Positions 13,860 to 32,780 of a stretch of DNA of 36,195 nucleotides are shown here, one piece after another. The position numbers and the translations under genes were made by a program. The stretch covers positions 1-36,195 of the forward strand of contig JAHCLD010000002.1 in assembly GCA_026125585.1 (NCBI GenBank), written 5' to 3'. The notes below the pieces were generated by a model that saw only the letters and a list, made by a program, of their open reading frames with translations, made no database searches and was not told the origin of the DNA. The stretch comes from Burkholderiales bacterium (lineage in GTDB: Bacteria; Pseudomonadota; Gammaproteobacteria; Burkholderiales; SG8-41). Position 1 is the stretch's first letter. Each line of letters begins with the position of its first letter.

Positions 13860-14780
13860 TCAGCCGTCGCGTTTCAGCACGGCCTCGATCTCCTCCGCCG
13901 GAACCTTGATGCTGACGCCGGCACGCTCCTGCTGCAGGATCAGGTACGAACGCGAATCGCGCTTTTCCCAGCCACGATTCAGCCCCTCGGTCATTTCGGC
14001 ATAGGTCAGGTTCGCCAGCCGCATCGGCACGCCGATCTCGCGCGCCAGTTCAGTGGCCAGCGTGACGTCCTTGTGCGCGAGCGCCAGCGCGAAATTCGGC
14101 GGGTCGAATTTGCCCTGCAGGAACTGTTCGCCGATGCGGTCGAAAGAACGCTTGCGGCCGAGCGCGCCCTGGCGGATCGCCGCCCACAGCGGCAGCGGTT
14201 CGACGCCGGCCTTGACTCCCATCGTGAACAGTTCCACCAGCGCCAGTTGCATCGAATATCCGGCGCAGTTGTGCACCAGCTTCGCCACCGAGCCGGCGCC
14301 GACCGGTCCGATGTAGATCACCTGGTCGCCGACGGCATCCAGCACCTTGCGGCAGCGCTCGAATTCGGCCTTGTCGCCGCCGACCCACAGCGCCATCTTG
14401 CCGGATTTCGCGCCCGAAGGCCCGCCGCTGACCGGCGCATCCAGGACCGACACTTTTTTCTCCGCAAACCGCGCATGCAGTTCGCGCACCACCGTCGGCG
14501 AATTGGTCGACAGGTCGAACCACACCGTGCCCGGGCGCATGGTCTTGATCAGGCCCTCGGCAACCGCCTTCACTTCCTTCGGTCCCGGCAGCGAGGTCAG
14601 CACCACGTCGGCATCGCGGCCGACATCCTCGACGCTGTCCGCCCAGATCGCGCCCGCCTTGAGGTGGGGCGCCGCGGCCTCCTTGCGCACATCATGCACC
14701 TTCAGCGCAAAACCACCCTTCATCGCGTTGAGCGCAATCGAGGCGCCCATCGTGCCCAGCCCTATGAATCCCACTTGCAT
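13860..14780 (-). CDS. NAD(P)-dependent oxidoreductase, 3-hydroxyisobutyrate dehydrogenase / 6-phosphogluconate-dehydrogenase-like family
   Basis: ATG 14780 with SD AAGGAG gives MQVGFIGLGTMG (Rossmann fold), followed by DAPVSGG and LAHKD motifs. Confidence 0.85.
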   Translation of the reverse strand: MQVGFIGLGTMGASIALNAMKGGFALKVHDVRKEAAAPHLKAGAIWADSVEDVGRDADVVLTSLPGPKEVKAVAEGLIKTMRPGTVWFDLSTNSPTVVRELHARFAEKKVSVLDAPVSGGPSGAKSGKMALWVGGDKAEFERCRKVLDAVGDQVIYIGPVGAGSVAKLVHNCAGYSMQLALVELFTMGVKAGVEPLPLWAAIRQGALGRKRSFDRIGEQFLQGKFDPPNFALALAHKDVTLATELAREIGVPMRLANLTYAEMTEGLNRGWEKRDSRSYLILQQERAGVSIKVPAEEIEAVLKRDG

Positions 14781-14814
14781 CTTCCGCTCCTTTGCCGATC
14801 CGGCATTGTCATCG

Positions 14815-15816
14815 TCAATCAACCTGGATTCCCGCCCTTTTCACGACACCCTCCCATTTCACGATTTCGGCGGAAATGTGCTTTTGGTACTCCGCTGGCG
14901 TCGATCCCACCAGTTCCACCCCGTCACCCCTGAAACGCTCCTGCATTTCCGGCGTGCGCAGCACATCGACAATCCCGCGGTTCAGGATGTCGACGACCGC
15001 GGCCGGGGTCGCCACCGGGGCAAGCACGCCGTACCAATTGGTCACTTCATATCCCGCGACGCCGGTTTCCGCAATCGCCGGCAGCTCGGGCATCGCCGGT
15101 GAACGTTTCGGGCTGGTGACCGCAAGGGCGCGAAGGCGTCCGGTCTTGATGTGGGGAACCGATTCAAGGGGCGTGGCAAACACCATGCTGATCTGCCCGC
15201 CCAGCACGTCGGCAAGCGCGGGACCGCCGCCCTTGTAGGCCACATGCAGCAGCTCGGTGTTCGTCAGCGTTCCCAGCAGCGCTCCGGACAGGTGCTGCAG
15301 GCTGCCCTGTCCGGCGGAACCGTAGGCCAGGCTCCCGGGTTTGGCCTTTGCCAGCGCAAGCAGGTCGGGGATGGACTTCGCCGGTACGGCAGGATGCAGG
15401 ACCAGCACGTACGACTGGCGGGTCATCTGGGTCACCGCCCTGAAATCCTTCAGCAGATCGTACGACAGGCGCCCGTAATGCGTGGCGCGGCGCGCGGTGT
15501 GGGTTCCGGTGATCAGCACGATGGTGTGTCCATCCGGCTGGGCGCGGGCGGCGGTTTCCAGGCCGATGGCCCCGGTGCCGCCGGGCCTGTTGTCGACGAC
15601 GACCGATTGCCCCCACAGGGTGCTGAGCCGCGGCGCGACGGTACGCGCGGTAATGTCCACGCCGCCACCCGGCGCGAGCGGAACGATGAGGCGGACAGGA
15701 CGCTGCGGAAACTGCTGTGCCGAAGCCTCCTCCGGCATGGCGGCGGCAAACATTGCGCAGACGAAACAGAACAGTGATGCAAGACGGGACAGGCCGGCAA
15801 AATGCGGAGCATTCAT
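14815..15816 (-). CDS. Bug/TctC family periplasmic substrate-binding protein
   Basis: SD GAGGAGG. Signal peptide, then QFPQRPVRLIVPLAPGGGVDITAR, VDNRPGGTG and VAYKGG. Same subfamily as the gene at 8605. Confidence 0.85.
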   Translation of the reverse strand: MNAPHFAGLSRLASLFCFVCAMFAAAMPEEASAQQFPQRPVRLIVPLAPGGGVDITARTVAPRLSTLWGQSVVVDNRPGGTGAIGLETAARAQPDGHTIVLITGTHTARRATHYGRLSYDLLKDFRAVTQMTRQSYVLVLHPAVPAKSIPDLLALAKAKPGSLAYGSAGQGSLQHLSGALLGTLTNTELLHVAYKGGGPALADVLGGQISMVFATPLESVPHIKTGRLRALAVTSPKRSPAMPELPAIAETGVAGYEVTNWYGVLAPVATPAAVVDILNRGIVDVLRTPEMQERFRGDGVELVGSTPAEYQKHISAEIVKWEGVVKRAGIQVD

Positions 15817-15888
15817 GAATACCTCCTCGTTGTGGACAGGTATTGCAGAACCCGCGGCTGAAGCCGCTGTTATCGTGACCTGAAGTCC

Positions 15889-15917
15889 ATTCTTTGCCGC
15901 GCCAGACCCAGCGTCAA
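15889..15917 (-). promoter_or_regulatory. possible internal sigma70-like promoter (TTGACG-17 nt-AAGAAT) ahead of the 14815 binding-protein gene
   Basis: Hexamers read on the - strand in the 128-nt spacer after the Fe-ADH gene. Sequence match only. Confidence 0.2.
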
Positions 15918-15944
15918 GCTGCCGACCGCACTATGGAGCCCGCG

Positions 15945-17141
15945 TCACCAGGCGGCTTCCAGCGCGGCCATCAGCGCGCCGCGCTCGCGCAGGAACTCCC
16001 GCCCGGGATCGGCGTTGAAATTCTTCAGCGAAGCCTCCAGCACGTCGCCCAGGCTGTCACGCGGGATGTCGAGTTCGCGCAGCCGCGCCGGCATGCCCGC
16101 TTCGGCAAAGGCCTGTTCGACTGCAGCCGCGGCACGCTCGTGCGGCGGGCGTCCGTCCATCACGCCGAAAGCCCCGGCGATCAGCGCCATCGCCTCCGGA
16201 TCGCGCGCGCCGAAATGGCGGATCACGGTCGCGGTCAGCGCCGAATTGGCTTCGCCCTGGCCGACATGCGCATGCCGGTTGAACAGGGCCGTGGCCAGCG
16301 CATAGGTCACCCGCGCCGGCCAGTGTTTTTCGGTCAGCGCGCCGCCGTCGTCGGCGTCGCGGTTCTGCAGGAAGGCGGCGGCGCACATCTCAATGCGCGC
16401 CGCGGCGTCCGCGGGATCGCCCATGCGCGGATAGGCGCCCCGTGCCAGGCGGAAAGCCTGGAGGCGGTCGCCTTCCGACAACGGCGCCATGCCCGGGGCG
16501 CCGAGATTCATGATGGCGCGCCAGAACACGGAGGTGCCCGTGGTGCGCGCCAGCGACACCGGCGCGGTCAGCAGCGCGTCCTCGTCCCAGAACAGCGCGG
16601 CCGGACGCGTCTTGGGATCGAAGAACTCCATGCGGTTGGGCCGCGCCGGGTCCTTGACCGCCGAGCCGGCGCGGTTCTGCGCCGTGGTTGCCGCGGTCAG
16701 CACGTTGATGATCGGCAGCTTCGGCGCCAGCAGTTTCGGGCTGATCGCCGGCGCGTTGGCCGGATACTGCGTGATCAGCTGTTCCACCGGCGCCTGCTCG
16801 GCGAGCAGGATCGCCACCACGCGCGTGCCTTGGATCACGCTGCCGGCGCCGACGCCGATCAGCATATCGGCGTTGGCCACGCGCGCGGCGGCCGCGGCGG
16901 CCTGCACCGATGCCAGCGTCGTGTCTTTCTCGATTTCGTCGTAACAGCCGGCATAGGCCGGGCCGAGGATTCCGGCGATGCGATCGACCAGATCGGTCTT
17001 GCGCGACACGCTGCGCCCGCACACCACGAAGGCGCGCCGCGATTTCCGGCGTTTCAGTTCCGCCGGCAGATTTTCCAGCGCATCCCTGCCGCTATACAAG
17101 CGCAGCGGATAAGCAACCGCGCGGAAATCGTGCCTGATCAC
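15945..17141 (-). CDS. iron-containing alcohol dehydrogenase family protein (maleylacetate-reductase-like fold)
   Basis: GTG 17141 overlaps the upstream stop (GTGA). It has an Fe-ADH layout with a dinucleotide loop GVGAGSVIQGT and a His-rich metal region NRHAHVGQGEANS. Confidence 0.7.
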   Translation of the reverse strand: MIRHDFRAVAYPLRLYSGRDALENLPAELKRRKSRRAFVVCGRSVSRKTDLVDRIAGILGPAYAGCYDEIEKDTTLASVQAAAAAARVANADMLIGVGAGSVIQGTRVVAILLAEQAPVEQLITQYPANAPAISPKLLAPKLPIINVLTAATTAQNRAGSAVKDPARPNRMEFFDPKTRPAALFWDEDALLTAPVSLARTTGTSVFWRAIMNLGAPGMAPLSEGDRLQAFRLARGAYPRMGDPADAAARIEMCAAAFLQNRDADDGGALTEKHWPARVTYALATALFNRHAHVGQGEANSALTATVIRHFGARDPEAMALIAGAFGVMDGRPPHERAAAAVEQAFAEAGMPARLRELDIPRDSLGDVLEASLKNFNADPGREFLRERGALMAALEAAW

Positions 17142-18718
17142 GGCCGTACGCCGTATTTTGCCTTGGGCCCGAGCTCCGTTGCCAAACGCGGTTGCATGGC
17201 CTTGATGAACCGGCACAGATAAGGACGGGTCTGGCGCGGATCAATCAGGTCCTCGACGGCAAAGGCTTCCGCGGTCAGAAACGGCGAAGTGATTTTTTTC
17301 AGCTCGGCTTCCAGTTCCTTTTCACGCTGCTTCGGATCGGGTGCATTCTGGATTTCCCGCTTGTACACGGCGCTGACGCCGCCTTCCACTGCCAGCGAAC
17401 CCCATTCGCCCGAAGGCCAGGCAACCTTGAAATCGAGCCCGTATTTGTCGATGCCGACACCGCCGCCCATGCCGTAGCATTTGCGCGTGACCACCGAAAT
17501 GATCGGCACGGTAGCCTGGCATTTCGCGTGCACCGCGCGCGCACCCTCGCGCAGGATCGCCGCCTCTTCGGATTCCTTGCCGATCATGAAGCCCGGCACA
17601 TCCATGAAAAAAACGATGGGAATGTGGAAGCAATCGCACAACTCGATGAAATGCGCCTGTTTGCGGGCCGACTTGACGTCAATGCGCCCGCCGACCATCG
17701 GATTGTTGGCGATCACGCCGACGGAATATCCGCCCATGCGGGCCAGTGCCGTAATCGCGGAACGGCCATAAGTTTCCTGAAGCTCGAACAGCGAGCCGCG
17801 GTCAACCACCATTTCCAGCACTTTCTTCATGCTGTACGGCTTGCGCGGCTCGCGCGGCACGATACGGATCAAATCGTCTTCACAGCGGTCAACGGGATCG
17901 TCGGACGGCACGAATGGCGGCAGCTGCCAGACATTGGTCGGCAGGTACGACAGAAAACGCCGGATCATTGCAAAACACTCTTCCTCGCTCGCCGCAGTAC
18001 TGTCGATGGTGCCCGCCTTGTCGACGGCAACCTTGTGGCCGCCCAGTTCCTCCTTGGTGACTTTCTGGCCGAGGCCGCGTTCGACGATGGGCGGCCCGGA
18101 TGCAAAGATGGTGCTGTTTTTCACCATGACCGACCAGTGCGCCATCACCGCGCGCAGCGCAGGGCCGCCCGCGGCGACTCCCAGCACGGCGCTTACCACC
18201 GGCACCATGCCCAGCAATTCCGCGACGTTGACGCCGGGATCGTTGGTATGTCCGGGAAACACCGTGAAGCCGCGCTTGGCCGAAGCCACGCCGCCGCCAT
18301 AACCGTCAATCAGGCGGACCAGCGGAATGCGGTACGAATGGGCAAGATCATCAATGAAACCACCCTGCCCGCCCTTGCGCCGGCCATGCCCCCAGCTGGT
18401 GCCACCGCGCACCGTGGTGTCTTCCCCGCCGATCGCGACCGGACGGCCGTCGATTTCGGCGATGCCCATGACGTAGGGCGCCGGAGTCACCTTGACGAGT
18501 TTGCCGTCCTTGTCGTATTCCCCCTTGCCGGTCAGCTTGCCGACTTCCTGGAAGGAGCCGCGGTCGACGATGCCCGCAATGCGTTCGCGGACGGTGAGAA
18601 ATCCTTTTTCATGGCGCAGCCGCACGGCTTCTTCGCCACCCATGCCTTCAGCCCATTGATAACGCTGTTTGATTTCCTCGGCTTCGCGTTCCCAGCCTGC
18701 TGTTTCAGCTTTGCTCAT
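17138..18718 (-). CDS. acyl-CoA carboxylase carboxyltransferase subunit (PccB-like, 526 aa), here called CT1
   Basis: Two-domain carboxyl_trans architecture. Motifs RERI..VDRGSF.E, DGRPVAIGGED, VPVVSAVLGVAAGG, GVIANNP, DVPGFMIGKESE and VVTRKCYGMGG. Close paralog of the gene at 30767..32335. Confidence 0.85.
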   Translation of the reverse strand: MSKAETAGWEREAEEIKQRYQWAEGMGGEEAVRLRHEKGFLTVRERIAGIVDRGSFQEVGKLTGKGEYDKDGKLVKVTPAPYVMGIAEIDGRPVAIGGEDTTVRGGTSWGHGRRKGGQGGFIDDLAHSYRIPLVRLIDGYGGGVASAKRGFTVFPGHTNDPGVNVAELLGMVPVVSAVLGVAAGGPALRAVMAHWSVMVKNSTIFASGPPIVERGLGQKVTKEELGGHKVAVDKAGTIDSTAASEEECFAMIRRFLSYLPTNVWQLPPFVPSDDPVDRCEDDLIRIVPREPRKPYSMKKVLEMVVDRGSLFELQETYGRSAITALARMGGYSVGVIANNPMVGGRIDVKSARKQAHFIELCDCFHIPIVFFMDVPGFMIGKESEEAAILREGARAVHAKCQATVPIISVVTRKCYGMGGGVGIDKYGLDFKVAWPSGEWGSLAVEGGVSAVYKREIQNAPDPKQREKELEAELKKITSPFLTAEAFAVEDLIDPRQTRPYLCRFIKAMQPRLATELGPKAKYGVRP

Positions 18719-18755
18719 GGTTTCCCTTTTTTGGCCTGCGTCCGCGGCGGCAGCA

Positions 18756-19778
18756 TCAATTGATCCGTTTGGCGAGGCCGAGGTCGGTCAGTATTTCCCT
18801 TATCTCGACATATTGCGCATCGAAAAACCTTTGCGCCTCCCGGCTATTCAGATAACTGTTCACCCTGAAATTCCTGTTCAAATCGTCGCGCCACTCCTCG
18901 CTGCCGGCCATTGCGGCGAAAGTCCGCTCCCAATACGAAACCTGGGCCGGATCCAGTCCTTTTGCCCCGACGATGCCAAGCCAATTGGAGAAGCTGGCAT
19001 CCGCGCCCTGTTCCCGCCATGTCGGCACGGCTGCCAGAGCGCCCGGCAAACGCTCGCTTCCACTGAAGCCGATCACCCGTATCCGGCCGGCATCCAGGTG
19101 CGGCAAAACGGTTCCGAAAGTCGACGCCACCACATCAACATGGCCTCCCAGCAACTGGGTCACGGATTGGCCCGAGGATTTGAAGGCCACGACCCGCATT
19201 TTCCGCACATCGACGCCCGCAGCCTTCATCGGGATGGCGACACCCATGTGAATCGAGTTGCCGATGGCTGTCGCGACGGCAATGCTCAGGGAAGACGGGT
19301 CGCGCCTCAGTCTGTCAATGAAATCCTTTCCGTCCTTTATCGGGGAATCTTTTCTCACGCTCAAATACACGTACTGGCCAAACAGCAGGCAGATCGGAGA
19401 AACATCGGTACGCTGAAAATTCGAAGTTCCCGTGATCTGGCTGGTAAACAGCGTCATCGAAAACGTCAACAACATGTGCGGATTGCCCGCATGCTGGCTG
19501 AGATAGGCACCGGCAACGGCCCCGGCGCCTCCAGGCTTGTTGACGACTTCGGCAAAAGGGCCGCCTTTCTGATCGCGCCAGATTTTCTGGATTGCGCGTG
19601 CGGCAATGTCCAGATTGCCGCCGGCGGCGGCTGTGGTAATCAGCTCAACCGTCCGGTTCGGCTTCCAGTCGGCGGCGGAAACCTGCTGCGCCGCAAGCCC
19701 TCCCGAAGCCGCACTGGCACACACCACGATCATCCACCACCTGATCCGCTGTCGATATCCAGCCGTTTCCGTCATCAT
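18756..19778 (-). CDS. TctC family periplasmic substrate-binding protein
   Basis: Start chosen at ATG 19778 (MMTETAGYRQRIRWWMIVVC...), preceded by GGAG. Mature part ADWKPNRTVELITTAAAGG. Confidence 0.75.
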   Translation of the reverse strand: MMTETAGYRQRIRWWMIVVCASAASGGLAAQQVSAADWKPNRTVELITTAAAGGNLDIAARAIQKIWRDQKGGPFAEVVNKPGGAGAVAGAYLSQHAGNPHMLLTFSMTLFTSQITGTSNFQRTDVSPICLLFGQYVYLSVRKDSPIKDGKDFIDRLRRDPSSLSIAVATAIGNSIHMGVAIPMKAAGVDVRKMRVVAFKSSGQSVTQLLGGHVDVVASTFGTVLPHLDAGRIRVIGFSGSERLPGALAAVPTWREQGADASFSNWLGIVGAKGLDPAQVSYWERTFAAMAGSEEWRDDLNRNFRVNSYLNSREAQRFFDAQYVEIREILTDLGLAKRIN

Positions 19779-19899
19779 GCCCAACTCCTGATCGGTCAAC
19801 TTCATGACTCTCGAATCTTGCGCAAACACGGACACTTTCAGTTGCGCTGCGGTCTTGCCCTTGCCCCTCCTTGCTGCTGTTACGCCCACATCCCCGTCA

Positions 19900-20901
19900 T
19901 CAATTGGTCCGTCTGGCCAGCCCCAGCTCCGTCAATGCCTCTTCCAATTCCCGGTACTGTTCATCCCAGTAACGGCCGGCATCCCTGCCGCCCAGAAAAT
20001 GATTCACGCGGAAATTCTTCTCGATGTCCTTTTTCCATTCCTCGGTCTTGCCAAGCTCGGCAAAAATCTTTTCCCAGTAGGCTTTTTGTTGCTCACCGAT
20101 GCCCTGCGCGCCCACCACGCCGCGCCAGCTGTCGAACACCGCGTTTGCCCCCTGTTCTTTCCAGGTGGGAATCTCCGCAAGGAGGCCCGTCATCCGCTGC
20201 GGCGCGCTGACGCCGATGATGCGGATCGCTCCGGATTTGACGTGTGGCAACAGCGCGCTGAACGTGGATGCGGCGACATCCACGTGCCCTCCCATCACCG
20301 CCGTCAGCGATTGCCCGGATGATTTGAAAGCCACCACTTTCATGCGCTTGATGTCGACTCCCGCGGCCTTCATGGGCAGGGCCACCCCCATGTGGATGTG
20401 ATTGCCGAGGGCGGTGGCAATGGCGACGCTGACGGAGTCCGGCGCTGCCTTCAGTTTTTGAATCAGCTCCCGCCCGTTCTTGATCGGCGAATCCGCCTTC
20501 ACCGTCGTGAAAATGTATTCGTTGAACAGCATTGCCAGCGGCGTGTAGCTGCTGTGATCCACCTTGCTTGTGCCCATGATCCGGCTGGTCAGCAGCGTTG
20601 GCGCCAGCATCATCAGGTAATGCGGATCGTTTGCATGCTGGGAAAGGTAATTGGATGCGATCCCGCCGCCGCCGCCGGTTTTGTTCGCCACCACCGCGGA
20701 AGGCACCATCTTTTTATCCTGCCAGATGCCCAGGATCACCCTGGCGGTAAGATCCTGGTTTCCTCCCGGCCCGGCGCTGACGATGAGCTCGGTGGTGCGT
20801 TCCGGCTTCCACTGCGCCCACGCGTTTCCGCCGCAGGCCGCCGCCAGCAGGCAGCCGGCCAGTATCGGTGAAAACCGTTTCTTGCCCTGTTTCAGCGTCA
20901 T
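19900..20901 (-). CDS. TctC family periplasmic substrate-binding protein (tandem paralog of the gene at 18756)
   Basis: Signal peptide then AQWKPERTTELIVSAGPGG. The start overlaps the upstream CoA-transferase stop (ATGA). Confidence 0.85.
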   Translation of the reverse strand: MTLKQGKKRFSPILAGCLLAAACGGNAWAQWKPERTTELIVSAGPGGNQDLTARVILGIWQDKKMVPSAVVANKTGGGGGIASNYLSQHANDPHYLMMLAPTLLTSRIMGTSKVDHSSYTPLAMLFNEYIFTTVKADSPIKNGRELIQKLKAAPDSVSVAIATALGNHIHMGVALPMKAAGVDIKRMKVVAFKSSGQSLTAVMGGHVDVAASTFSALLPHVKSGAIRIIGVSAPQRMTGLLAEIPTWKEQGANAVFDSWRGVVGAQGIGEQQKAYWEKIFAELGKTEEWKKDIEKNFRVNHFLGGRDAGRYWDEQYRELEEALTELGLARRTN

Positions 20902-24686: not shown

Positions 24687-24702
24687 GTTCTGTTTCCGGT
24701 GC

Positions 24703-25416: not shown

Positions 25417-26756
25417 CTGCCCGTCACTTCGCCGATGATGCCGGTGTGGACACGCCCTTCGCGAAACTGGCTCGAGCGCAGGATGTTCACCACGGCCGGG
25501 ATGTTGTGTTTCAGGCCCTGGATGTCGAAACCCTCCAGCGCCTCGATGAGCCTGTCGATCGCGGCGCTGCGCGTGGCCGCACGCACGATGACCTTGGCGA
25601 TCATCGGATCGTAATGCGGCGTCACGTCGCGGCCTTCGGCGTAGCCGGTGTCGATGCGGATGCCTTCGCCTTCGGGCGGACGGAACACCGTCAGCTTGCC
25701 CGGCGACGGGAAAAAATTCTTCGGATCCTCGGCGTAGACCCGCGCCTGGATCGCATGACCTTTCACCTCCGCCTTGCCCGGCAGGATGTCGGACAGTTTT
25801 TCGCCGGCGGCGGAGCGGATCTGCGACCGTACCAGATCGACGCCGGTGACTTCCTCGGTGACGCCGTGCTCGACCTGCAGCCGCGTGTTCATTTCCAGGA
25901 AATTGAACGAGCCATCGGCGCCGAGCAGCATTTCGACGGTGCCGATGTTGTCGTAACCCATGCTTTTCATGATGCCGGCGATCTGGTCGGCGACGCCGAC
26001 GGCCTTGTCGCGCGGAATTTCGGGCCCCGGCGCTTCCTCGATGACTTTCTGGTTGCGGCGCTGGGTCGAGCAGTCGCGCTCGAACAGGTGCATCGCGCCG
26101 CCGTGGCGGTCGCCGAGGATCTGGAACTCGACGTGGCGCGGGCGTTCGATCAGTTTTTCCAGATAGACCTCGGCGGTGCCGAAGCCGCGGCTGGCCATCG
26201 AGCGCGAGCGCTCGACCGCGATCAGCAGTTCGGCCTCGTCCTTCGCCGGCAGCATGCCGATGCCGCCGCCGCCGCCGGCGGGCTTCACCAGCACCGGGAA
26301 CCCGATCTTGCGCGCCGCGGCGAGGATCGCGTCATTGTCGTCGGGCAGCACGCCCGAGCCCTGGGACATCGGCATGCCGTACTGCGCGGCGATGTCGCGG
26401 GCGCGGGTCTTGTGGCCCATCGCGTCGATCCACTTTGGCGAAGGCCCGATGAAGTGCGCGCCGGCATCGATGACCTTCTGCGCGAACCCGGCGTTCTCCG
26501 ACAGAAAACCGTAGCCGGGATGCAGGCCGTCGGCGCCGGACTGTTTCAGCACCGCGACGATCCGGTCCTGGTCGAGATAGCTCTCGCGCGCCGGCGCCGG
26601 GCCGACCGCAAAGGTCTGGCTGGCCATTTCCAGATAGGGCGCATGGCTGTCGGCCTCGGAATAGATCGCGACCGACGGAATATTCATCGCGTTCAGCGCG
26701 CGCAGCACCCGGGCGGCAACGGCGCCCCGGTTGGCAACTAGGATTTTATTGAACAT
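25407..26756 (-). CDS. biotin carboxylase (AccC-type ATP-grasp subunit)
   Basis: 449 aa. Motifs MFNKILVANRG, KPAGGGGGIGM, ERDCSTQRRNQK and EMNTRLQVEH. Appears intact. Confidence 0.9.
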   Translation of the reverse strand: MFNKILVANRGAVAARVLRALNAMNIPSVAIYSEADSHAPYLEMASQTFAVGPAPARESYLDQDRIVAVLKQSGADGLHPGYGFLSENAGFAQKVIDAGAHFIGPSPKWIDAMGHKTRARDIAAQYGMPMSQGSGVLPDDNDAILAAARKIGFPVLVKPAGGGGGIGMLPAKDEAELLIAVERSRSMASRGFGTAEVYLEKLIERPRHVEFQILGDRHGGAMHLFERDCSTQRRNQKVIEEAPGPEIPRDKAVGVADQIAGIMKSMGYDNIGTVEMLLGADGSFNFLEMNTRLQVEHGVTEEVTGVDLVRSQIRSAAGEKLSDILPGKAEVKGHAIQARVYAEDPKNFFPSPGKLTVFRPPEGEGIRIDTGYAEGRDVTPHYDPMIAKVIVRAATRSAAIDRLIEALEGFDIQGLKHNIPAVVNILRSSQFREGRVHTGIIGEVTGRKI

Positions 26757-26802
26757 GTCTTTTCGTCATGGATCATGGATGTTTCGGAAACCGCCGCTGG
26801 AA

Positions 26803-26897
26803 CGCCGCGAGGCATGTGAAACGCGAAACGCTCTTCCGGACCATGCTCCGGCCCGGAAGTTGGGTGTGGGGAATCACGTTTCACATGCCTCGCGGCG
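26803..26897. repeat. 21-bp perfect inverted repeat (CGCCGCGAGGCATGTGAAACG / CGTTTCACATGCCTCGCGGCG) enclosing a 53-nt loop with a nested 7-bp hairpin
   Basis: Arms at 26803-26823 and 26877-26897. Nested CTTCCGG/CCGGAAG at 26833-26839 and 26853-26859. Located in the 159-nt spacer between CT2 and the biotin carboxylase gene. Confidence 0.9.
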
Positions 26898-26915
26898 CTC
26901 TCCTCGGCGCACGGA

Positions 26916-28450
26916 TCAGTAGCTCGTCGGCCAGGCGCGCATCAGGTGCTGGCCCACGCCCCTGGTCATGCGCAGCTTGTAGACGTCGAGCATGCGGATC
27001 AGGTAGTCGCGCGTGTCCTGCGGCCGGATCACCGACTGCGCGGCGTACACGGCGGCCAGGCCCCAGACGTCCGCGCCCTTGCGGATGTCGGCCAGCGCCT
27101 CCTCGAAGCCCGGTTCGCCGTGGCCGACGCCATGCACGATCTTGGTCGCAAAGTCGGGGCTCATGAAGCTGACTTCCGCGGTCGGCCAGGCGCCGACCTC
27201 GTCGGAGTGGCGGCCGCCGCCCATGCAGACATAGGCTCGGCCGTAGCTCTTGCGCACGATCACCGACAGGTGCGCATGGTGACCATCTGCAGGGCGTGCA
27301 TGAAGTTCATGATCTTGCCCGGCGCACCGGCGCGTTCGGCCTCGGTCCCGATCTGGAAACCCGGGGTGTCGACCAGCATCACGAAGGGGATGTTGAACGA
27401 GTCGCACATCACGATGAAATCGACGATCTTGCGGCAGGCGTCGGCATCGAGCGCGCCGCCGCGGTGCAGCGGGTTGTTGGCGATGATGCCGACCGACTTG
27501 CCGCCGAGGCGCGCGAGCGCCGTCACCGCGCTCTTGCCGAAACGCGGCTTCATCTCGAACAGCGAGTCCCTGTCGACGATGCACTTGATGACCCGCTTCA
27601 TGTCGTACACCTGCGTGCGGCTCTCGGGCAGGATGTCGAACACTTTCGCCATGTCGGCGCCGGAACCCGCGGGCACCGGCGCTTCCGGCGGCGCTTCGCG
27701 GTGGTGGCCGGGCATGTACGACAGGAATTTCTTGATCTGGTCGAACACCTCTTCCTCGGTGTCGGCCACCTGGTCGACGAGGCCCGTGACTTCGGCGTGC
27801 AGGCGCCAGCCGCCAAGCTCTTCGGCCGAGACCTTCTCGCCCAGCGCCATCGACACCAGCCCGGGACTGGACACCGCCATGATCGCGCTCTTGTGCATGA
27901 TGGCGAAGTCGGACTGGCACATCAGCCAGGTCGACGAGCCGAAGGACGGGCCGAAGGCCGCCGCCGCGGTGGGCACTTCGCGCAGGCGACGGAACTGGGT
28001 GTTGTCGTTGCCCAGCAGCAGTCCCATGCCGCGCGACCCCATCGCGTCGGGCAACCGCGCGCCGGTGGATTCCCCGATCAGCACCAGCGGCATGCCGCGC
28101 TCGACCGCGGTGCGTTTCATGTGCGAGATCTTCTTGCTGTTGGTGGCCGAGGTCGATGCGCCTTTCACCGTGAAGTCGTTGACCACCAGGCAGACGTCAC
28201 GCTCATTGATGCGGCCGAAGCCGGCGAGCTTGCCGTCCGTCTGGGTCTCGTCCTCCATCTCCGGATACACCGCCGAGGAACCGAACAATCCGGACTCGAT
28301 GAACGAGCCCTTGTCCATCAGGTAGTCGATGCGCTGGCGCGCATTCCACACCCCCTTGGCCGTGCGCTTGGCATATTTCTCCTCACCGCCGCCGGCCAGT
28401 GCCTTGGCGCGACGGGCTTCATATTCCTGCAGCAATGCTTCGAATGCCAT
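26916..28450 (-). pseudogene. carboxyltransferase subunit (CT2, divergent paralog, about 511 codons) interrupted by a 1-nt frameshift near 27273-27274
   Basis: ORF 27260..28450 (N-terminal 396 aa: FTVKGASTS, SSPGLV, GIIANNP, DTPGFQIGTEAE) ends ...ALQMVTMRTCR*. ORF 26916..27920 continues in another frame with HLSVIVRKSYGRAYVCMGGG to the C-terminus. Confidence 0.8.
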
Positions 28451-28484
28451 TGAATCGATTCCGTTATGTCAACAAATCGTGGGT

Positions 28485-28514
28485 TAAAAAATAATCAATA
28501 AAATCAATATGTTA
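28485..28514 (-). repeat. AT-rich element copy in the spacer upstream of CT2; on the - strand it reads CATATTGATTTTATTGATTATTTTTT
   Basis: Shares the 12-mer CAATAAAATCAA with copies A and B. AATCAATATGTTA matches WATCAANNNNTTR. It overlaps the CoA-transferase stop codon. Confidence 0.6.
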
Positions 28515-29747
28515 CGATAACTCTGCGCAGACTTCGCCCTGTGGATCGCTGTAAATCACGCCGGCCTTTTCCAGGTCCCGTACTTCGTTCGCGGTCCAGC
28601 CCATCTGCTCCAGCACGCTCCGCGTGTCCCGACCGACGCGCCCTCCGCTTCTGCGGATGCGCCCGGGCGTGCGCGACAACCTGGGCACCGGGCCCGTCAG
28701 CGTCACCGTGCCCAGATCGTCGTCCGGAACTTCGGCCAGCATGCCGCGCTCGCGGAAATGCGGGTCCCGGAAAATATCGGCCACATTGTTGATGCCCATC
28801 GCGGGAACATCCGCCGCGTCCAGGATCCTGCGGATTTCCTCCAGCGTGTGCCGGCCGGCCCAGTCCTGCACGATCCCGTCCAGCGCCTGCTGGTGCCGGC
28901 CGCGCGCGATGGCGTTCGCAAAACGCTCGTCGGCAGGCAGCTCGGGGCGGCCGATGGCCGGCGCAAAGCGGCGGAACACCGTGTTCTGCGCCGCCTGGAT
29001 GTGCACGAACTGGCCGTCGGCCGTCGAGTACAGATTGTTCGGCACGCTGCCGGCAATGCCGGAACCGGCACGGTTGGCAATCTCGCCGAGTTTGTCGTAG
29101 GCCGGCACATGCGGCTCGATGAAGCTGAACGCGCCCTCGGCCAGGGCCGCGTCGACGTACTGTCCTTCGCCGGTCCGGTTGCGATGCAGCAGTGCCATCA
29201 TCGCGCCAAAGGCCGCGTACAGGCCCGTGATGTAATCGGTCAGCGCCACCGCGACGCGCGCCGGCGGACGGTCGGGATCGCCGGTCAGATGCCGCAGCCC
29301 GCTGGCCGCTTCGCAGATGATGCCGTAGCCGGGACGCGCGCTGTAGGGGCCGGTCTGACCGAAACCGCTGATGCGGACCATGACCAGATCCGGGCGCAGC
29401 CGCGACAGGTCGGCATAGCCCAGCCCCCATTTTTCGAGGCCGCCCGGACGGAAATTCTCGACGACCACGTCGCATTGCGGCACCAGCCTGCGCACCAGCG
29501 CCTGCCCCCGGGCATGGCGCAGATCGACCGAGATCAGTTTTTTGTTGCGCAGGATGCTGGCCGCATACAGCGACTTGCCCTTGAACCGCTTGCCCGCGGA
29601 GCGCACGCCGTCGCCTTCCCGCGGTTCGATCTTGATCACCTCCGCCCCGAAGTCGGCGAACAGCCGGCCGCAGAAGGGCCCGGCGATGGTGGAACCCATC
29701 TCCAGGACGCGGTACCCGCTCAGCGGCCCCTGCGGAGAATCACCCAT
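28512..29747 (-). CDS. family III CoA-transferase (CaiB/BaiF), paralog of the gene at 20898..22154
   Basis: Motifs GYRVLEMGSTIAGPFC..FADFGAEVIKIE, VVVENFRPG and GFGQTGPY. Confidence 0.85.
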   Translation of the reverse strand: MGDSPQGPLSGYRVLEMGSTIAGPFCGRLFADFGAEVIKIEPREGDGVRSAGKRFKGKSLYAASILRNKKLISVDLRHARGQALVRRLVPQCDVVVENFRPGGLEKWGLGYADLSRLRPDLVMVRISGFGQTGPYSARPGYGIICEAASGLRHLTGDPDRPPARVAVALTDYITGLYAAFGAMMALLHRNRTGEGQYVDAALAEGAFSFIEPHVPAYDKLGEIANRAGSGIAGSVPNNLYSTADGQFVHIQAAQNTVFRRFAPAIGRPELPADERFANAIARGRHQQALDGIVQDWAGRHTLEEIRRILDAADVPAMGINNVADIFRDPHFRERGMLAEVPDDDLGTVTLTGPVPRLSRTPGRIRRSGGRVGRDTRSVLEQMGWTANEVRDLEKAGVIYSDPQGEVCAELS

Positions 29748-29759
29748 GCCTTTTTCTTT

Positions 29760-30746
29760 TTATTTGACAAGCCCGATGTCGGTGAGGATGCCCCGCAGTT
29801 CGGCGGCCTGGGTTTCGTAATATTTCGCGGCGTCCTTCGCCGGCAGGTAGTTGCCGTCCCAGTAGCTCGCGGCCAGTTCTTTTTTCCATTCGTCGGACTG
29901 CGAAAGCTTCTGGAACGCGCCTTCCCAGAAAGCGACCTGCGCGGCATTCAGTCCCTTCGGCCCGATCGCGCCCTGCGAGGCGGAAAACGTGCCGTCGATT
30001 CCCTGTTCGCTCCACGTCGGCACAGTGGCCAGCGCGCCGGGCATCCGCTGCGCGGACGTAATGGCGATGACGCGGATCGTGCCGGCCTGCACATGCGCAA
30101 TCACGTTGGGCGTCGTCGACGACACGACGTCGATATGGCCGCCCAGCAGGTTGGTCACCGACTCCCCCGAAGACTTGAAGGCGATGACTTTCATTTTGCG
30201 GATATCCACGCCCGCGGCCTTCATCGCCTTGGCGATGCCGATGTGGATGTGGTTGCCAAGGGTGCTGGCCACGGCGACCGACAGCGAGGACGGATCCTTT
30301 TTCAGGCGCGCGATGAGGTCCGCGCCGGTCTTGATCGGCGAATCCGCCCGCACCGCCACGGTCATGTATTCGTTGAAGAGCAGCGAAATCGGCGTGAAAT
30401 CGCTCCAGGTCAGCGGGCTGGTGCCGACCAGCTTGTTGGTCAGCAGCGTGTACGGCGCGATCGACACGTAGTGGCCGTCCCCGGCGTGCTGGTTGATATA
30501 GTTCCAGGCGATGGTGTTGCCGCCGCCGGGCTTGTTCATGACGATCGTGCTGACTTCGACGATTTTCTTCTCCTGCCAGATGCGCTGGACCGCGCGGTTG
30601 GCGCGGTCGACCGCGCCGCCGGCCGCGGTGCCCGAGATGATTTCGACATTGCGCTCGGGCTTCCATGTCGCCTGCGCCATGACCGTCGTCGCGGCAGCCA
30701 GCGCCAGGCCTGCGCCGGTCAGGGTTTTCAGCAAGGTTTTTTTCAT
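29760..30746 (-). CDS. TctC family periplasmic substrate-binding protein
   Basis: ATG 30746 (MKKTLLKTLTGAGLALAAATTVMA) preceded by GGAGGAGG. Mature part QATWKPERNVEIISGTAAGG. The upstream part of ORF 29760..31109 overlaps the CT3 gene. Confidence 0.85.
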   Translation of the reverse strand: MKKTLLKTLTGAGLALAAATTVMAQATWKPERNVEIISGTAAGGAVDRANRAVQRIWQEKKIVEVSTIVMNKPGGGNTIAWNYINQHAGDGHYVSIAPYTLLTNKLVGTSPLTWSDFTPISLLFNEYMTVAVRADSPIKTGADLIARLKKDPSSLSVAVASTLGNHIHIGIAKAMKAAGVDIRKMKVIAFKSSGESVTNLLGGHIDVVSSTTPNVIAHVQAGTIRVIAITSAQRMPGALATVPTWSEQGIDGTFSASQGAIGPKGLNAAQVAFWEGAFQKLSQSDEWKKELAASYWDGNYLPAKDAAKYYETQAAELRGILTDIGLVK

Positions 30747-30766
30747 CACAATCCTCCTCCGGATGA

Positions 30767-32335
30767 TCAGGGTCTGACACCGCTTTTGAATTTGGGCCCC
30801 AGCTGCGAACGCAGACGGCCCTGCAGGGCATCGATGAACTGGCAAAGGTACGGCCGCGTCTCGCGCGGATCGATGATGTCCTCGACGGCAAAGGCCTCGG
30901 CGGTGCGGAAGGGCGAGGCCAGCCGTTTCAGTTCCGCCTCCAGTTCCTTTTCCCGGGCGGCGGGATCGGGCGCGCTTTCGATTTCGCGCCGGTAGGCCGC
31001 CTTGACGCCGCCTTCGACCGGCAGCGAGCCCCATTCGGCGGAAGGCCAGGCGATCTTGAAATTGAGCCCGCCGCGATCGGTGAAGCCGCCGCCTGCCACG
31101 CCATAACACTTGCGGATCAGCACCGAAAACACCGGAACGCTGACCTGGAATCCGATGAAGCGGGCGCGCACGCCTTCGCGCAGGATCGCGTCGGACTCGG
31201 ATTCGACGCCGACCATCAGCCCCGGAACGTCGGCAAACAGGATGATCGGGATGTTGAACATGTCGCAGAGCTCGGTGAAATGCCCCTGCTTGCGCGCCGC
31301 CTTGTAATCCACGATGCCGCCGACCATCGGATTGCTGGCGACGATGCCGACCACTTTGCCGTTCATGCGGGCAAAGCCGGTAATCACCGCACGGCCGAAA
31401 GTCGGCTGGATTTCGAAGAAGGAGCCGCGGTCGACGATCATGCCGATCAGCTTCTTCATGTTGTAGGCCTGGCGGCCGGAGCGCGGCACGATGCTGGCCA
31501 GCGCGTCCTCGCAGCGGTCGACCGGATCGCCGCTGTCGACGACCGGCGGCAGTTCCCAGACGTTCTGCGGCATGTACGACAGGAAACGGCGGATCTGCTC
31601 GAAGCAGTCCTGCTCGCTTTCGGCCACGTTGTCGATGGTGCCGGCGGTATCGACGGCAACCCTGGTGCCGCCGAGTTCGTCCTTGTGCAGCCTCTGTCCG
31701 AACGCGCGTTCGACCACGGGCGGCCCCGCGGCGAAGATCTGGCCGCTGCCTTTCACCATGATCGACCAGTGCGACAGGATCGCGCGCATCGAAGGCCCGC
31801 CGGCAGTGGTGCCCATGACCGCGCTGACGACCGGAACGATGCCCAGCAGGTCGACGGAACGCTCCATGCCGTCCTGGCCGTAACCCGGAACCACGGTATA
31901 ACCCTTGCGCCGCGCGGTGTTGACCGTGCCGCCGGTACCGTCGATCAGATTGACCAGCGGCATGCGGTACTCGTACGCGAGGTCTTCGATGAACCCGCCC
32001 TGCCCGCCCTTGCGGCGGTCGCTGCCGAACCCGGTGCCGGCGCGGATGGTGTAATCTTCGCCGCCGATGGCCACCGGCCGGCCATCGATGCGCGCAATGC
32101 CCATCACGTAGGGTGCCGGTTCAAACGCGGTCAGCCGGCCTTCGGCATCGTAGCTGGCTTTGCCGGCCAGTTTGCCGACCTCACGGAAAGATCCCGGATC
32201 GATCAGCGCGGCAATTCGCTCGCGCACCGTGAGCTTGCCTTGGGCGTGGTGCTTGGCCACGGCCTCCGGACCGCCACAATCCTCCGCCAGCGCACGCCGA
32301 CGATGCAGCTCTTCAATTTCCGGCAGCCAGCTCAT
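30767..32335 (-). CDS. acyl-CoA carboxylase carboxyltransferase subunit (CT3, 522 aa)
   Basis: Collinear with CT1 over its whole length, for example APYVMGIARIDGRPVAIGGED, VPVVSAVMGTTAGG, GIVASNP, DVPGLMVG and LIRKCYGVAGG, with an identical C-terminal ...GVRP. Confidence 0.85.
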   Translation of the reverse strand: MSWLPEIEELHRRRALAEDCGGPEAVAKHHAQGKLTVRERIAALIDPGSFREVGKLAGKASYDAEGRLTAFEPAPYVMGIARIDGRPVAIGGEDYTIRAGTGFGSDRRKGGQGGFIEDLAYEYRMPLVNLIDGTGGTVNTARRKGYTVVPGYGQDGMERSVDLLGIVPVVSAVMGTTAGGPSMRAILSHWSIMVKGSGQIFAAGPPVVERAFGQRLHKDELGGTRVAVDTAGTIDNVAESEQDCFEQIRRFLSYMPQNVWELPPVVDSGDPVDRCEDALASIVPRSGRQAYNMKKLIGMIVDRGSFFEIQPTFGRAVITGFARMNGKVVGIVASNPMVGGIVDYKAARKQGHFTELCDMFNIPIILFADVPGLMVGVESESDAILREGVRARFIGFQVSVPVFSVLIRKCYGVAGGGFTDRGGLNFKIAWPSAEWGSLPVEGGVKAAYRREIESAPDPAAREKELEAELKRLASPFRTAEAFAVEDIIDPRETRPYLCQFIDALQGRLRSQLGPKFKSGVRP

Positions 32336-32340
32336 GACTC

Positions 32341-32385
32341 ACAATATTATTTATAAAAAACAATAACTTATATAAAAGCAAAGGC
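32341..32385 (-). repeat. AT-rich leader upstream of CT3, loosely related to the 25-bp element; on the - strand it reads CTTTTATATAAGTTATTGTTTTTTATAAATAATATT
   Basis: By-eye alignment to TTTTATAAGTATTTGATTTTATTGAATATTTT requires indels. No clear SD before ATG 32335. Confidence 0.4.
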
Positions 32386-32415
32386 TCACTTTTAAATGCT
32401 GGTGACTGCTTGCTT

Positions 32416-32637
32416 TTATTCTTCGACGATGGCCACCACCTGGCCTTCGGCAACCGGGTCCTTTTCCTTGACCAAGATCTCTTTCACCGTACCGCCGTCT
32501 TCTGTGATGACCGGAATTTCCATTATCATGGACTCGATCACGATCAGCGTGTCACCACTCTCGACCTTGTCTCCGGGCTTGGCCTTCAGCTGCCAGACCG
32601 TGCCAGTGATTTCGGATTTGACTTCGATGCGGGCCAT
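32416..32637 (-). CDS. biotin/lipoyl-attachment-domain protein (73-aa BCCP-like carrier) lacking the canonical biotinyl lysine
   Basis: It has the flattened beta-barrel pattern GTVW.L.AKPGDKVESGDTLIVIESMIMEIPV...GTVKEILVKEKDPVAEGQVVAIVE. The SD AAGGAG lies 6 nt before the ATG. The expected E(A/S)MKM reads ESMIM. Confidence 0.8.
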   Translation of the reverse strand: MARIEVKSEITGTVWQLKAKPGDKVESGDTLIVIESMIMEIPVITEDGGTVKEILVKEKDPVAEGQVVAIVEE

Positions 32638-32675
32638 GCGAGACTCCTTGAAATAGGGACGGAAGGTGGAAAAGC

Positions 32676-32704
32676 ATGCTATGCCTGCCCTATATTGTTG
32701 TCAA
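32676..32704 (-). promoter_or_regulatory. candidate sigma70 promoter of the carboxylase cluster (TTGACA-17 nt-TAGCAT)
   Basis: Read on the - strand: -35 at 32699-32704 and -10 at 32676-32681, about 40 nt upstream of ATG 32637. Confidence 0.5.
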
Positions 32705-32748
32705 GAAGATTGTTGACAATAATACAAATTGAATCTATTGTCGCAACA
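32694..32748. promoter_or_regulatory. candidate GntR-family operator boxes: ATTGTTGTCAA (32694-32704), ATTGTTGACAAT (32709-32720, palindromic ATTGT-N2-ACAAT) and ATTGTCGCAACA (32737-32748)
   Basis: Repeated motif overlapping both -35 hexamers and the -10 of the regulator promoter. Box 2 fits the generic GT-Nx-AC pattern of GntR operators. Confidence 0.45.
32713..32741 (+). promoter_or_regulatory. candidate sigma70 promoter of the GntR regulator gene (TTGACA-17 nt-TATTGT)
   Basis: -35 at 32713-32718 and -10 at 32736-32741, about 40 nt upstream of ATG 32781. Confidence 0.5.
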
Positions 32749-32780
32749 GTCCAGTTAATCGAGCGCAAGCCCCACTTCTC

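Follow-up and report, generated by a model that had tools for sequence, protein, structure and literature searches.

A mosaic gene cluster of uncultured Burkholderiales predicted to couple CoA activation to biotin-dependent carboxylation

Here we describe a gene cluster in a 36,195-nucleotide stretch of a Burkholderiales genome (GTDB lineage SG8-41; GenBank assembly GCA_026125585.1, contig JAHCLD010000002.1, positions 1 to 36,195; hereafter the window). Pfam scans of open reading frames (ORFs) supported by GC content at third codon positions (GC3) defined a run of 16 minus-strand genes at 13860-32637, encoding a free biotin carboxylase (BC), a small biotin carboxyl carrier, three carboxyltransferases (CT1, CT2 and CT3), both subunits of an ADP-forming acyl-CoA synthetase (ACD), two CaiB-type CoA-transferases, five TctC receptors and two putative oxidoreductases. 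We consider the chances somewhat better than even that this is a chromosomal, GntR-controlled catabolic or assimilatory operon for the ATP-dependent carboxylation of short acyl-CoAs, in which a single BC and a single carrier serve more than one carboxyltransferase. The enzyme families are all known; what is new, in that we could not find it described, is the conserved pairing in which an archaeal-type ACD is joined by a carboxyltransferase of its own (511 aa), a free BC and a mini-carrier.

A conserved core with two inserted cassettes

The cluster was compared with 79 related loci (given L numbers below) retrieved by scanning a genome collection with ACD alpha, onto which the window proteins were mapped; many loci end at contig edges and the counts are therefore minima. 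The set comprises uncultured Burkholderiales or Betaproteobacteria and a few Alphaproteobacteria, with lakes, groundwater, soil and bioreactors among the sources. The core order is carrier, CT3, CT2, BC, ACD beta, ACD alpha, a protein of the iron-containing alcohol dehydrogenase fold ('Fe-ADH'), in some loci a glutaredoxin-like protein (Grx), and an FlK-type thioesterase, with a divergent GntR regulator and a crotonase. The ACD beta and alpha genes are linked in 71 of the 79 loci, preceded by BC in 58, and CT2, BC and both ACD genes are contiguous in 46; 'Fe-ADH' directly follows ACD alpha in 47. The run carrier-CT3-CT2 occurs in 26/79 loci, the carrier is joined to CT2 without CT3 in another arrangement (6/79), the GntR gene adjoins the carrier gene in 31, and the crotonase gene adjoins GntR in 22. 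An earlier reading of this DNA from its letters alone (the sequence-only reading), which had listed the same minus-strand gene order and domain content as our Pfam scans, ended the cluster at 13860; the conserved unit in fact runs on to Grx (13469-13789, minus strand; PF00462, with an N-terminal signal-like segment) and to the FlK-type hotdog thioesterase (12441-12833, minus strand; PF22636, 106 bits), whose family lies downstream of the core in 35 loci, with Grx after the core in 12. The comparison of neighbourhoods across genomes that it had proposed found synteny conserved in dozens of species. Because the synteny has this breadth, and because an operator/promoter element is near-invariant in 26 of 27 loci (see below), we judge the gene arrangement to be far beyond chance.

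Two sets of paralogous genes interrupt this core in the window. Cassette A consists of TctC5 and CaiB2, and the order CT3-TctC5-CaiB2-CT2 was found in 5/79 loci; cassette B consists of TctC4, CaiB1, TctC3, TctC2 and CT1, with a CaiB1 cassette following ACD alpha in seven loci and CT1 present in three. The run 'Fe-ADH'-TctC1-HIBADH was found in 11 loci. GC3 in cassette B is 0.70-0.78 (TctC4 0.78, CT1 0.74) against 0.83-0.90 in the core, and this low GC3 coincides with a dip at 17-23 kb in the GC content of the window, which is ~0.66 overall and gives rise to many spurious ORFs. Since synteny, cassette paralogy and GC3 agree, we interpret the cluster as a mosaic of a conserved core and two inserted cassettes, and not as the single 19-kb unit that had first been described. 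Within this mosaic each activating enzyme is paired with its own carboxyltransferase type: the CT2 type always adjoins ACD, while CT1 and the CaiB genes lie in cassettes next to CT3-type genes.

Other lineages carry alternative inserts at the same points. A FadB-like protein may lie between BC and ACD beta, and in 11 betaproteobacterial lineages a cytoplasmic-looking molybdenum (Mo) enzyme of the sulfite oxidase family (Oxidored_molyb plus Mo-co_dimer) lies, together with the beta and alpha subunits of an electron transfer flavoprotein, between the carrier or CT3 and CT2 (L037, L051, L054, L056, L057, L060, L061, L064, L068, L074 and L076). Three loci (L017, L069 and L075) have a second carrier'-ACD'-CT2' set after ACD alpha, in which the CT2 type again adjoins ACD; its carrier is 77-80%, its ACD 60-64% and its CT2-type carboxyltransferase 51% identical, and it is accompanied by TctC genes and, in L017 and L075, by a LysR regulator. 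Carboxylation modules seem to accrete preferentially at this locus. Genes further downstream in other lineages, for an adhesin, an HAD hydrolase, an aminotransferase, a pseudouridine synthase and cytochrome c assembly, were rejected as members of the cluster; they are unrelated housekeeping genes that mark its boundary.

Three junctions in the window overlap by 4 nt, namely BC/ACD beta (ATGA), CaiB1/TctC3 (ATGA) and CT1/'Fe-ADH' (GTGA), and are predicted to be translationally coupled. A fourth overlap had been proposed, but it vanishes once the HIBADH gene is started at the ATG at 14780, which is preceded by an AAGGAG site.

A shared promoter and operator

The GntR/FCD regulator (32781-33491, plus strand; PF00392 and PF07729) is divergent from the cluster, and the crotonase-family enoyl-CoA hydratase (33580-34386, plus strand; PF00378) lies beyond it, as the sequence-only reading had noted, and points in the same direction. 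A promoter scan placed divergent sigma-70-like promoters in the 143-bp spacer that separates GntR from the carrier gene. The one on the minus strand, TTGACA-17-TAGCAT at 32704-32676, overlaps a 15-nt inverted repeat at 32693-32724 (TATTGTTGTCAAGAA/TTGTTGACAATAATA), the two making up a divergent promoter/operator region at 32676-32730. Given that ATTGTCAACAATCTTCTTGACAACAAT and the TAGCAT -10 element are near-invariant in 26 of 27 orthologous spacers amid flanking sequence that has diverged, there is good evidence for a predicted GntR-operated promoter that drives the operon. We found no convincing minus-strand terminator within the cluster; the scan placed a weaker promoter-like site ahead of TctC1 at 15917-15889, and an Rfam scan of the window returned no family at gathering score. 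The carrier gene itself is AT-rich for this genome (GC 0.545) and is separated from CT3 by a very AT-rich spacer of 80 nt (32336-32415), in which neither a terminator nor an Rfam family was detected.

Carboxyltransferases, biotin carboxylase and carrier

CT1 (17138-18718, minus strand; PF01039, 321 bits) and CT3 (30767-32335, minus strand; 522 aa; PF01039, 313 bits) are intact, whereas CT2 (26916-28450, minus strand) is a 511-aa protein with a PF01039 match of 314 bits only when a frameshift is repaired. Ranked by bit scores against PDB entries, all three are closest to enzymes of the PccB/MmdA/12S type (270-300 bits, or 240-300 bits over the PccB/AccD5/MmdA clade; CT3 has its nearest matches, at ~299 bits, among PccB/MmdA-type structures) and score far lower against GcdA and the beta subunits of methylcrotonyl-CoA and geranyl-CoA carboxylases; CT3 and CT1, for instance, reach 80-90 bits against GcdA and ~290 bits against PccB. 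In NCBIfam, each of them matches the mmdA subfamily best. CT1 and CT3 share 64% identity, while CT2 is just 32% identical to either. Among database homologues, the best 120 matches of CT2 are 511-521 aa long, nearly all of them 511 aa, and the best 120 clusters are all at least 82% identical to it.

Aligned to PccB of Streptomyces coelicolor (ScPccB), CT2 reads RKSYGRAYV, with Val in place of D422 and Arg in place of G419, and has a C-terminal extension ending in WPTSY. Its Sulfitobacter orthologue likewise has Val and Arg at these positions, and the Thermotoga and Sulfolobus enzymes have Ile at 422. CT3 and CT1 instead carry a Gly-rich RKCYG(V/M)(A/G)GG motif, with a loop one residue shorter, at ScPccB positions 421/422. 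In having no Asp at the D422 position the carboxyltransferases are, as judged from these alignments, PccB-like yet not PccB in the strict sense. In mutagenesis studies of PccB, a hydrophobic residue at 422 reportedly relaxes specificity towards acetyl- and butyryl-CoA. Because CT2 is nearest to the PccB/MmdA types and has Val at this position, its substrate might be a small acyl-CoA in the C2-C4 range, akin to propionyl- or acetyl-CoA, which we offer as a guess.

The free BC (25407-26756, minus strand; 449 aa, no fused carrier) has full-length matches to PF00289, PF02786 and PF02785, and an accC-like NCBIfam match of 510 bits that is under the cut-off. The 73-aa carrier (32416-32637, minus strand; PF00364) scores 79.3 bits with NF004547, a model of the mycobacterial TB7.3 type whose cut-off is 75, and is the only core protein to attain an NCBIfam equivalog cut-off. 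The sequence-only reading had called the layout archaeal in style, which holds for the ACD and the free BC but not for this carrier, a TB7.3-type protein unlike the longer archaeal AccB.

Apparent lesions in this copy of the carboxylase

The motif around the biotinylation site of the carrier is ESMIME in the window, where codon 32524-32526 is ATA (Ile), and ESMKME, with AAA, in 42/42 orthologous carriers, including that of a relative with 98-99% identical DNA. The orthologues thus have the (A/S)MKM biotinyl-lysine feature and the window's carrier, as sequenced, does not, so that this Lys to Ile change (K38I) would prevent its biotinylation. CT2 is split over two frames through a single C missing at 27273 by comparison with L002, so that of the three carboxyltransferases first listed for the cluster one has no intact ORF; a one-base insertion restores the 511-aa protein and a full PF01039 match, and the 98-99% identical relative, metagenome-assembled genome (MAG) GCA_019635025.1 (loci L001 and L002), holds an intact gene of this length. 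The deletion sits in a patch (27262-27292) with eight nucleotide changes within ~30 nt relative to that genome, which turns NFMNAMTL(V/L)TVP, a motif invariant in ~50 orthologues, into NFMHALQMVTM. In appearance the patch suggests an artefact of the local consensus or assembly, or else templated repair. Being unlike either paralogue, it was judged not to stem from gene conversion by CT1 or CT3.

As sequenced, the window's shared carboxylase is predicted to be inactive, with both the carrier and CT2 affected. Both lesions are absent from the 98-99% identical relative and from every orthologue. Every cluster gene compared is under purifying selection, with non-synonymous to synonymous ratios (pN/pS) of 0-0.3 against the nearest relatives, and in CT2 the stretch beyond the frameshift shows 11 synonymous and 3 non-synonymous differences. 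The lesions must therefore be either errors of sequencing, assembly or consensus, or a very recent inactivation.

CoA-activating enzymes and TctC receptors

The ACD has all the features of an NDP-forming acyl-CoA synthetase, with both subunits, their domains and the His motifs present. ACD beta (24703-25410, minus strand; ATP-grasp domain PF13549, 234 bits) contains the His motif HKSD, and its best NCBIfam match is ADP-forming 3-hydroxypropionate-CoA ligase, at 188 bits against a cut-off of 1300; ACD alpha (23247-24686, minus strand; PF13380 and PF13607) has the phosphohistidine motif SHTG at residue 253 (His-254), and among PDB entries it comes closest to archaeal ACDs and to the 4-hydroxybutyrate (4HB) and 3-hydroxypropionate (3HP) CoA ligases of Nitrosopumilus maritimus. 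The two family III CoA-transferases, CaiB1 of cassette B (20898-22154, minus strand; PF02515, 402 bits) and CaiB2 of cassette A (28512-29747, minus strand; PF02515, 399 bits), are 59% identical, cover all 366 of 366 profile positions and carry the catalytic Asp in LTDYITG (CaiB2) and LTDCITG. Both are closest to SUGCT-type dicarboxylate transferases, the nearest characterised PDB match of CaiB2 being a SUGCT-type succinate-hydroxymethylglutarate CoA-transferase (217 bits), with NCBIfam scores of 256-258 bits against a cut-off of 750.

Seven TctC genes, encoding periplasmic solute receptors of the tripartite tricarboxylate transporter family, occur in the window and five of these in the cluster. 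TctC2 (18756-19805), TctC3 (19900-20901) and TctC4 (22180-23151), all on the minus strand, belong to cassette B and match PF03401; the start of TctC2 was set to agree with the 349-aa gene called in L001. TctC5 of cassette A (29760-30746, minus strand) was recognised by the signal peptide in its translation and its identity to TctC2-4, and its counterpart in L002 is called as PF03401. TctC2-5 are 43-53% identical to one another, and TctC1 (14815-15816, minus strand; PF03401, 203 bits), at ~25% identity to them, represents a separate subfamily. The description of the five as orphans stands, with neither TctA nor TctB found in the window by tblastn with the Sulfitobacter proteins; orphan TctC receptors are usual for Burkholderiales.

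Accessory enzymes

The protein labelled as an iron-containing alcohol dehydrogenase by the sequence-only reading ('Fe-ADH'; 15945-17141, minus strand) does keep the fold (PF00465, 100 bits), but most of the canonical iron ligands are missing. In an alignment with FucO, for which the ligands D196, H200, H263 and H277 were compared, three of the four are replaced (D196 by Ser, H200 by Arg and H277 by Gln), and because 41 orthologues retain the same substitutions the protein is probably not an iron-dependent alcohol dehydrogenase. An AlphaFold2 model, built from a shallow alignment of 38 sequences at least 82% identical, was of low confidence (pLDDT 66.9), and a Foldseek search with this low-confidence model returned generic Fe-ADH, maleylacetate reductase and AdhE matches at TM ~0.47. 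The oxidoreductase at 13860-14780 (minus strand; PF03446 and PF14833) is an NAD(P)-dependent enzyme of the 3-hydroxyisobutyrate dehydrogenase (HIBADH) or tartronate-semialdehyde reductase type, with 2-hydroxy-3-oxopropionate reductase as its best NCBIfam match (193 bits against a cut-off of 397). The crotonase has generic best matches, with NF006699 at 320 bits under a cut-off of 354. Between the HIBADH and thioesterase genes there is also a small conserved ORF (12979-13251, minus strand; ~90-97 aa) that is 79% identical to one in L055.

Related clusters in cultured Alphaproteobacteria

A plasmid of Sulfitobacter sp. LC.270.F.C4 (NZ_CP136685) encodes a carboxyltransferase 61%, a fused ACD 55-57%, a BC 49% and a carrier 49% identical to the window proteins, and a search with its carboxyltransferase led to orthologous clusters in Aureimonas sp. 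OT7 (CP062167), Alsobacter soli, Lutibaculum baratangense and others. In the cultured Alphaproteobacteria the identities to the window proteins are 59-63% for the carboxyltransferase, 54-62% for ACD, 46-50% for BC and 48-52% for the carrier. Their genes are arranged as MR/MLE, 511-aa carboxyltransferase and fused ACD; TrmB, BioY in some cases, BC and carrier; and MaoC-like hydratase, in some cases an alpha/beta hydrolase, and SDR, with a complete TctABC set nearby and often a CitE-like CoA-ester lyase as well. These clusters thus share with the window an orthologous quartet, a carrier of 73-74 aa and TctC-family uptake; they differ in the fusion of ACD, in TrmB in place of GntR, and in BioY, full TctABC, MR/MLE, the hydratase, SDR and lyase, while carboxyltransferases of the CT3/CT1 type, CaiB, the Fe-ADH-fold protein and the crotonase, all present in the window cluster, are missing from them. 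No source that we examined gives the alphaproteobacterial clusters a specific name. Judged by these comparisons, a carboxyltransferase of the CT2 type, ACD, BC and mini-carrier form an evolutionarily stable unit around which the chemistry varies.

Further genes adjoin the CT2-ACD pair in alphaproteobacterial loci. In MAG locus L071 (6417-7569) it is flanked by a split thiamine pyrophosphate (TPP) enzyme (ComDE-/Ppd-like), RraA-like aldolases, an M20 peptidase and an MFS transporter, and in L080 (11419-12339) by TauD and PhyH dioxygenases, so variable are these surroundings from locus to locus. A homologue of the Mo enzyme (28% identical) is found in the Alsobacter cluster (L085, 6472-7674), and genes assigned to PF03601 ('sulfate exporter') lie beside the clusters of Sulfitobacter and Alsobacter, which may hint at a link to sulfite or sulfonates. 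An involvement of phosphonates was considered because some alphaproteobacterial CT2-ACD pairs have a PEP-mutase-family gene and the split TPP enzyme nearby, and because GntR has a weak phnR-like match. It was rejected, as KRCGH, a lyase motif, is found in the proteins of the PEP mutase family and EDKxxxxxNS is not.

Proposed function and alternative explanations

The scheme that we favour builds on the observed operon anatomy, catalytic motifs, conserved linkage and shared promoter, and from it we infer what chemistry takes place and in which direction, what class of substrate is used, which CoA donor serves and what the accessory enzymes do. Organic acids, probably dicarboxylates, would be delivered by the TctC receptors to a TctAB channel whose genes lie elsewhere. 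ACD beta and alpha would turn a free short-chain acid into its CoA thioester, feeding CT2, while the free BC would load CO2 onto the 73-aa carrier, from which the 511-aa CT2 would pass it to the acyl-CoA in a net ATP-dependent carboxylation. CT3 and its paralogue CT1 would draw on the same BC and carrier; the SUGCT-like CaiB transferases would form thioesters, with succinyl-CoA or the carboxylated product as donor, and CT3 and CT1, with their Gly-rich specificity pocket, would carboxylate them. The 'Fe-ADH', the HIBADH-type reductase, the crotonase and the FlK thioesterase would process substrate or product, and GntR may sense the imported acid or a pathway intermediate. Carboxylation is the preferred direction because BC is present and a membrane decarboxylase subunit is not. 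The sequence-only reading had leaned, conservatively, towards imported acids that undergo CoA activation and then carboxylation or decarboxylation. With carboxylation as the last step that view still fits best; each activating enzyme travels with its own carboxyltransferase type.

Several points weigh against this scheme. It names no substrate, and no core enzyme attains an equivalog threshold; the roles of 'Fe-ADH', HIBADH, crotonase and thioesterase are left unexplained by it; the window is without TctA or TctB, and its own carrier and CT2 are defective as sequenced. The argument from Val at the D422 position leans on mutagenesis of a protein only ~30-35% identical, and the alphaproteobacterial gene contexts differ from the betaproteobacterial ones, so that function may not transfer between them. 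Furthermore, the SUGCT-like CaiB enzymes suggest dicarboxyl-CoA substrates, for whose alpha-carboxylation we know of no precedent, and CT3 and CT1 might therefore decarboxylate or transcarboxylate instead. In one such alternative, modelled on the transcarboxylase of Propionibacterium shermanii, CT3 and CT1 would decarboxylate CaiB-activated dicarboxylates of the malonate, methylmalonate or glutaconate type onto the carrier, CT2 would hand the carboxyl group to an ACD-made acyl-CoA, and BC would top up carboxybiotin. The TctC receptors and SUGCT-like transferases do indicate dicarboxylates, two highly divergent carboxyltransferase families (CT2 against CT3 and CT1) share one small carrier, this carrier resembles the small ones of transcarboxylases and decarboxylases, and mmdA is the best NCBIfam match of the carboxyltransferases. 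We nevertheless regard the exchange as unlikely, given that BC is invariably present and predicted to be translationally coupled to ACD beta, that there is no Na+-pumping beta subunit, that CT3 and CT1 score so much lower against GcdA than against PccB, and that the lineages with CT2 only (six loci) cannot transcarboxylate between two carboxyltransferase types. Synthesis of ATP by reversal of BC upon decarboxylation was rejected on thermodynamic grounds, the ~-20 kJ/mol available from malonate-type substrates being too little.

The ACD matches raise a different option, the assimilation of 3HP, acrylate or propionate, in which ACD would make 3HP- or propionyl-CoA, the crotonase would dehydrate 3HP-CoA, CT2 with BC and carrier would carboxylate propionyl-CoA, and the Fe-ADH-fold and HIBADH proteins would interconvert 3HP and malonate semialdehyde or reduce an enoyl-CoA. 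The best match of ACD beta to a 3HP-CoA ligase, the similarity of ACD alpha to the N. maritimus 3HP/4HB ligase structures and the PccB-like character of CT2 all agree with this, and the parts list appears to resemble the acrylate/3HP genes of Halomonas (the family III transferase AcuN, the crotonase AcuK and the Fe-ADH DddA). We think there is only a slim chance that it is correct: the ligase score of 188 bits is far under the family cut-off of 1300, the 'Fe-ADH' is without its metal ligands, the crotonase matches are generic, and acryloyl-CoA reductase, malonyl-CoA reductase, methylmalonyl-CoA mutase/epimerase and 4HB-CoA dehydratase do not appear in the Pfam annotation of the window. The last three were also not among the NCBIfam annotations of the scanned window ORFs, and the enzymes that define the 3HP/4HB cycle are likewise not among the recurrent families of the 79 loci; because these are absent we rule out the full cycle, which the sequence-only reading had also turned down. 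A further possibility is that the 19 kb are an accretion of independent modules that is no working unit here, the shared carboxylase being in the process of loss. The mosaic structure seen in synteny and GC3 is in keeping with this, and both lesions strike the most conserved small targets of one enzyme while being absent from the relative and the orthologues. Against it stand the low pN/pS in all genes and the excess of synonymous changes past the frameshift, the intact promoter and operator, the fact that each lesion is a single-nucleotide event, and the appearance of the CT2 patch, which looks like a consensus or assembly error; decay of this kind seems improbable to us.

Our scheme of shared carboxylation also admits a bolder version, to which we would give perhaps one chance in a handful: the quartet of CT2, ACD, BC and carrier may be a widespread 'activate-then-carboxylate' module, as yet undescribed, that Alpha- and Betaproteobacteria use on a non-classical acyl-CoA, and in abundant uncultured Burkholderiales of freshwater, groundwater and activated sludge it may have become a plug-in platform, where cassettes of receptor, CoA-transferase and carboxyltransferase join one BC and carrier for the ATP-driven incorporation of CO2 into several imported acids. 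More speculatively still, some versions could process sulfonated acids, because the Mo enzyme lies inside the operon in 11 betaproteobacterial lineages and in Alsobacter and because PF03601, TauD-like or ComDE-like genes are neighbours in alphaproteobacterial loci.

Comparison with known systems and implications

Full-text literature searches returned nothing relevant on the cluster and no characterised counterpart, in line with the sequence-only reading, which had recognised no characterised pathway. The closest systems share individual features. In the actinobacterial multi-carboxyltransferase carboxylases (AccA3 with AccD1-AccD6; PccB/AccB of S. coelicolor) several PccB-fold carboxyltransferases are likewise served by one BC/carrier, the AccD paralogues sharing AccA3; in the window, by contrast, BC and the 73-aa carrier are separate, no epsilon subunit was seen, and all the carboxyltransferases lie in one operon, each with a CoA-activating partner of its own (ACD or CaiB) and with TctC receptors alongside. 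The archaeal acetyl/propionyl-CoA carboxylase and 3HP/4HB-CoA ligases have in common with the window a free BC, a free carrier, a PccB-size carboxyltransferase, an NDP-forming acyl-CoA synthetase in beta-then-alpha order and a crotonase nearby; they differ from it in that the window has a short TB7.3-like carrier, GntR control, TctC receptors and a heterotrophic Burkholderiales host, and none of the defining cycle enzymes. CoA-transfer systems of the CaiB/CaiC and SUGCT types resemble the window's CaiB enzymes in being full-length PF02515 proteins with a catalytic Asp, yet the latter score far under the equivalog cut-offs, and the coupling of transferase to carboxyltransferase is, to our knowledge, part of no characterised family III pathway. 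The Propionibacterium transcarboxylase (12S/5S/1.3S) and the Na+-translocating decarboxylases (Mmd, Gcd) combine a PccB-fold carboxyltransferase with a small free carrier, as does the window, which however has a BC and has neither a 5S-type (pyruvate) carboxyltransferase nor a membrane beta subunit.

CT2 orthologues are very common in metagenomes. The cluster is common in uncultured Burkholderiales, and the orthologous clusters of cultured Aureimonas, Alsobacter, Lutibaculum and Sulfitobacter allow direct testing. If the carboxylation reading is true, the operon would give widespread uncultured Burkholderiales a heterotrophic route for incorporating CO2, and would be a natural case of modular carboxyltransferase swapping on a shared BC and carrier that would be useful for engineering new-to-nature carboxylases. 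On a practical level, annotating proteins of this cluster as 'acetyl-CoA carboxylase carboxyltransferase', 'methylmalonyl-CoA decarboxylase alpha' or 'iron-containing ADH' is probably a mistake.

Other genes in the window

A plus-strand block at 7585-11445 encodes a D-2-hydroxyacid dehydrogenase, two further TctC receptors and a crotonase (NF006007, 387 bits, above the cut-off), and many betaproteobacterial loci show this block, along with EamA and DapE, in synteny with the carboxylase cluster. On the other side of the cluster, between the crotonase and a GDPD phosphodiesterase, lies a gene for a conserved 235-aa protein with a signal-peptide-like N-terminus (34386-35090, plus strand), which has no Pfam match and is found in 19 related loci. 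The first kilobase of the window has a GC content of 0.75, and at 1-1461 long ORFs overlap on both strands, of which the 419-aa minus-strand ORF has no Pfam match. At 1133-4166 a lyase of the PrpB/isocitrate lyase family (KRCGH motif, under the prpB cut-off) is encoded directly upstream of LeuC and LeuD, both of which exceed equivalog-domain cut-offs; a homologue of this lyase (47% identical) lies near the CT2-ACD pair in the alphaproteobacterial MAG loci L078 and L080, together with Iso_dh and TauD genes.

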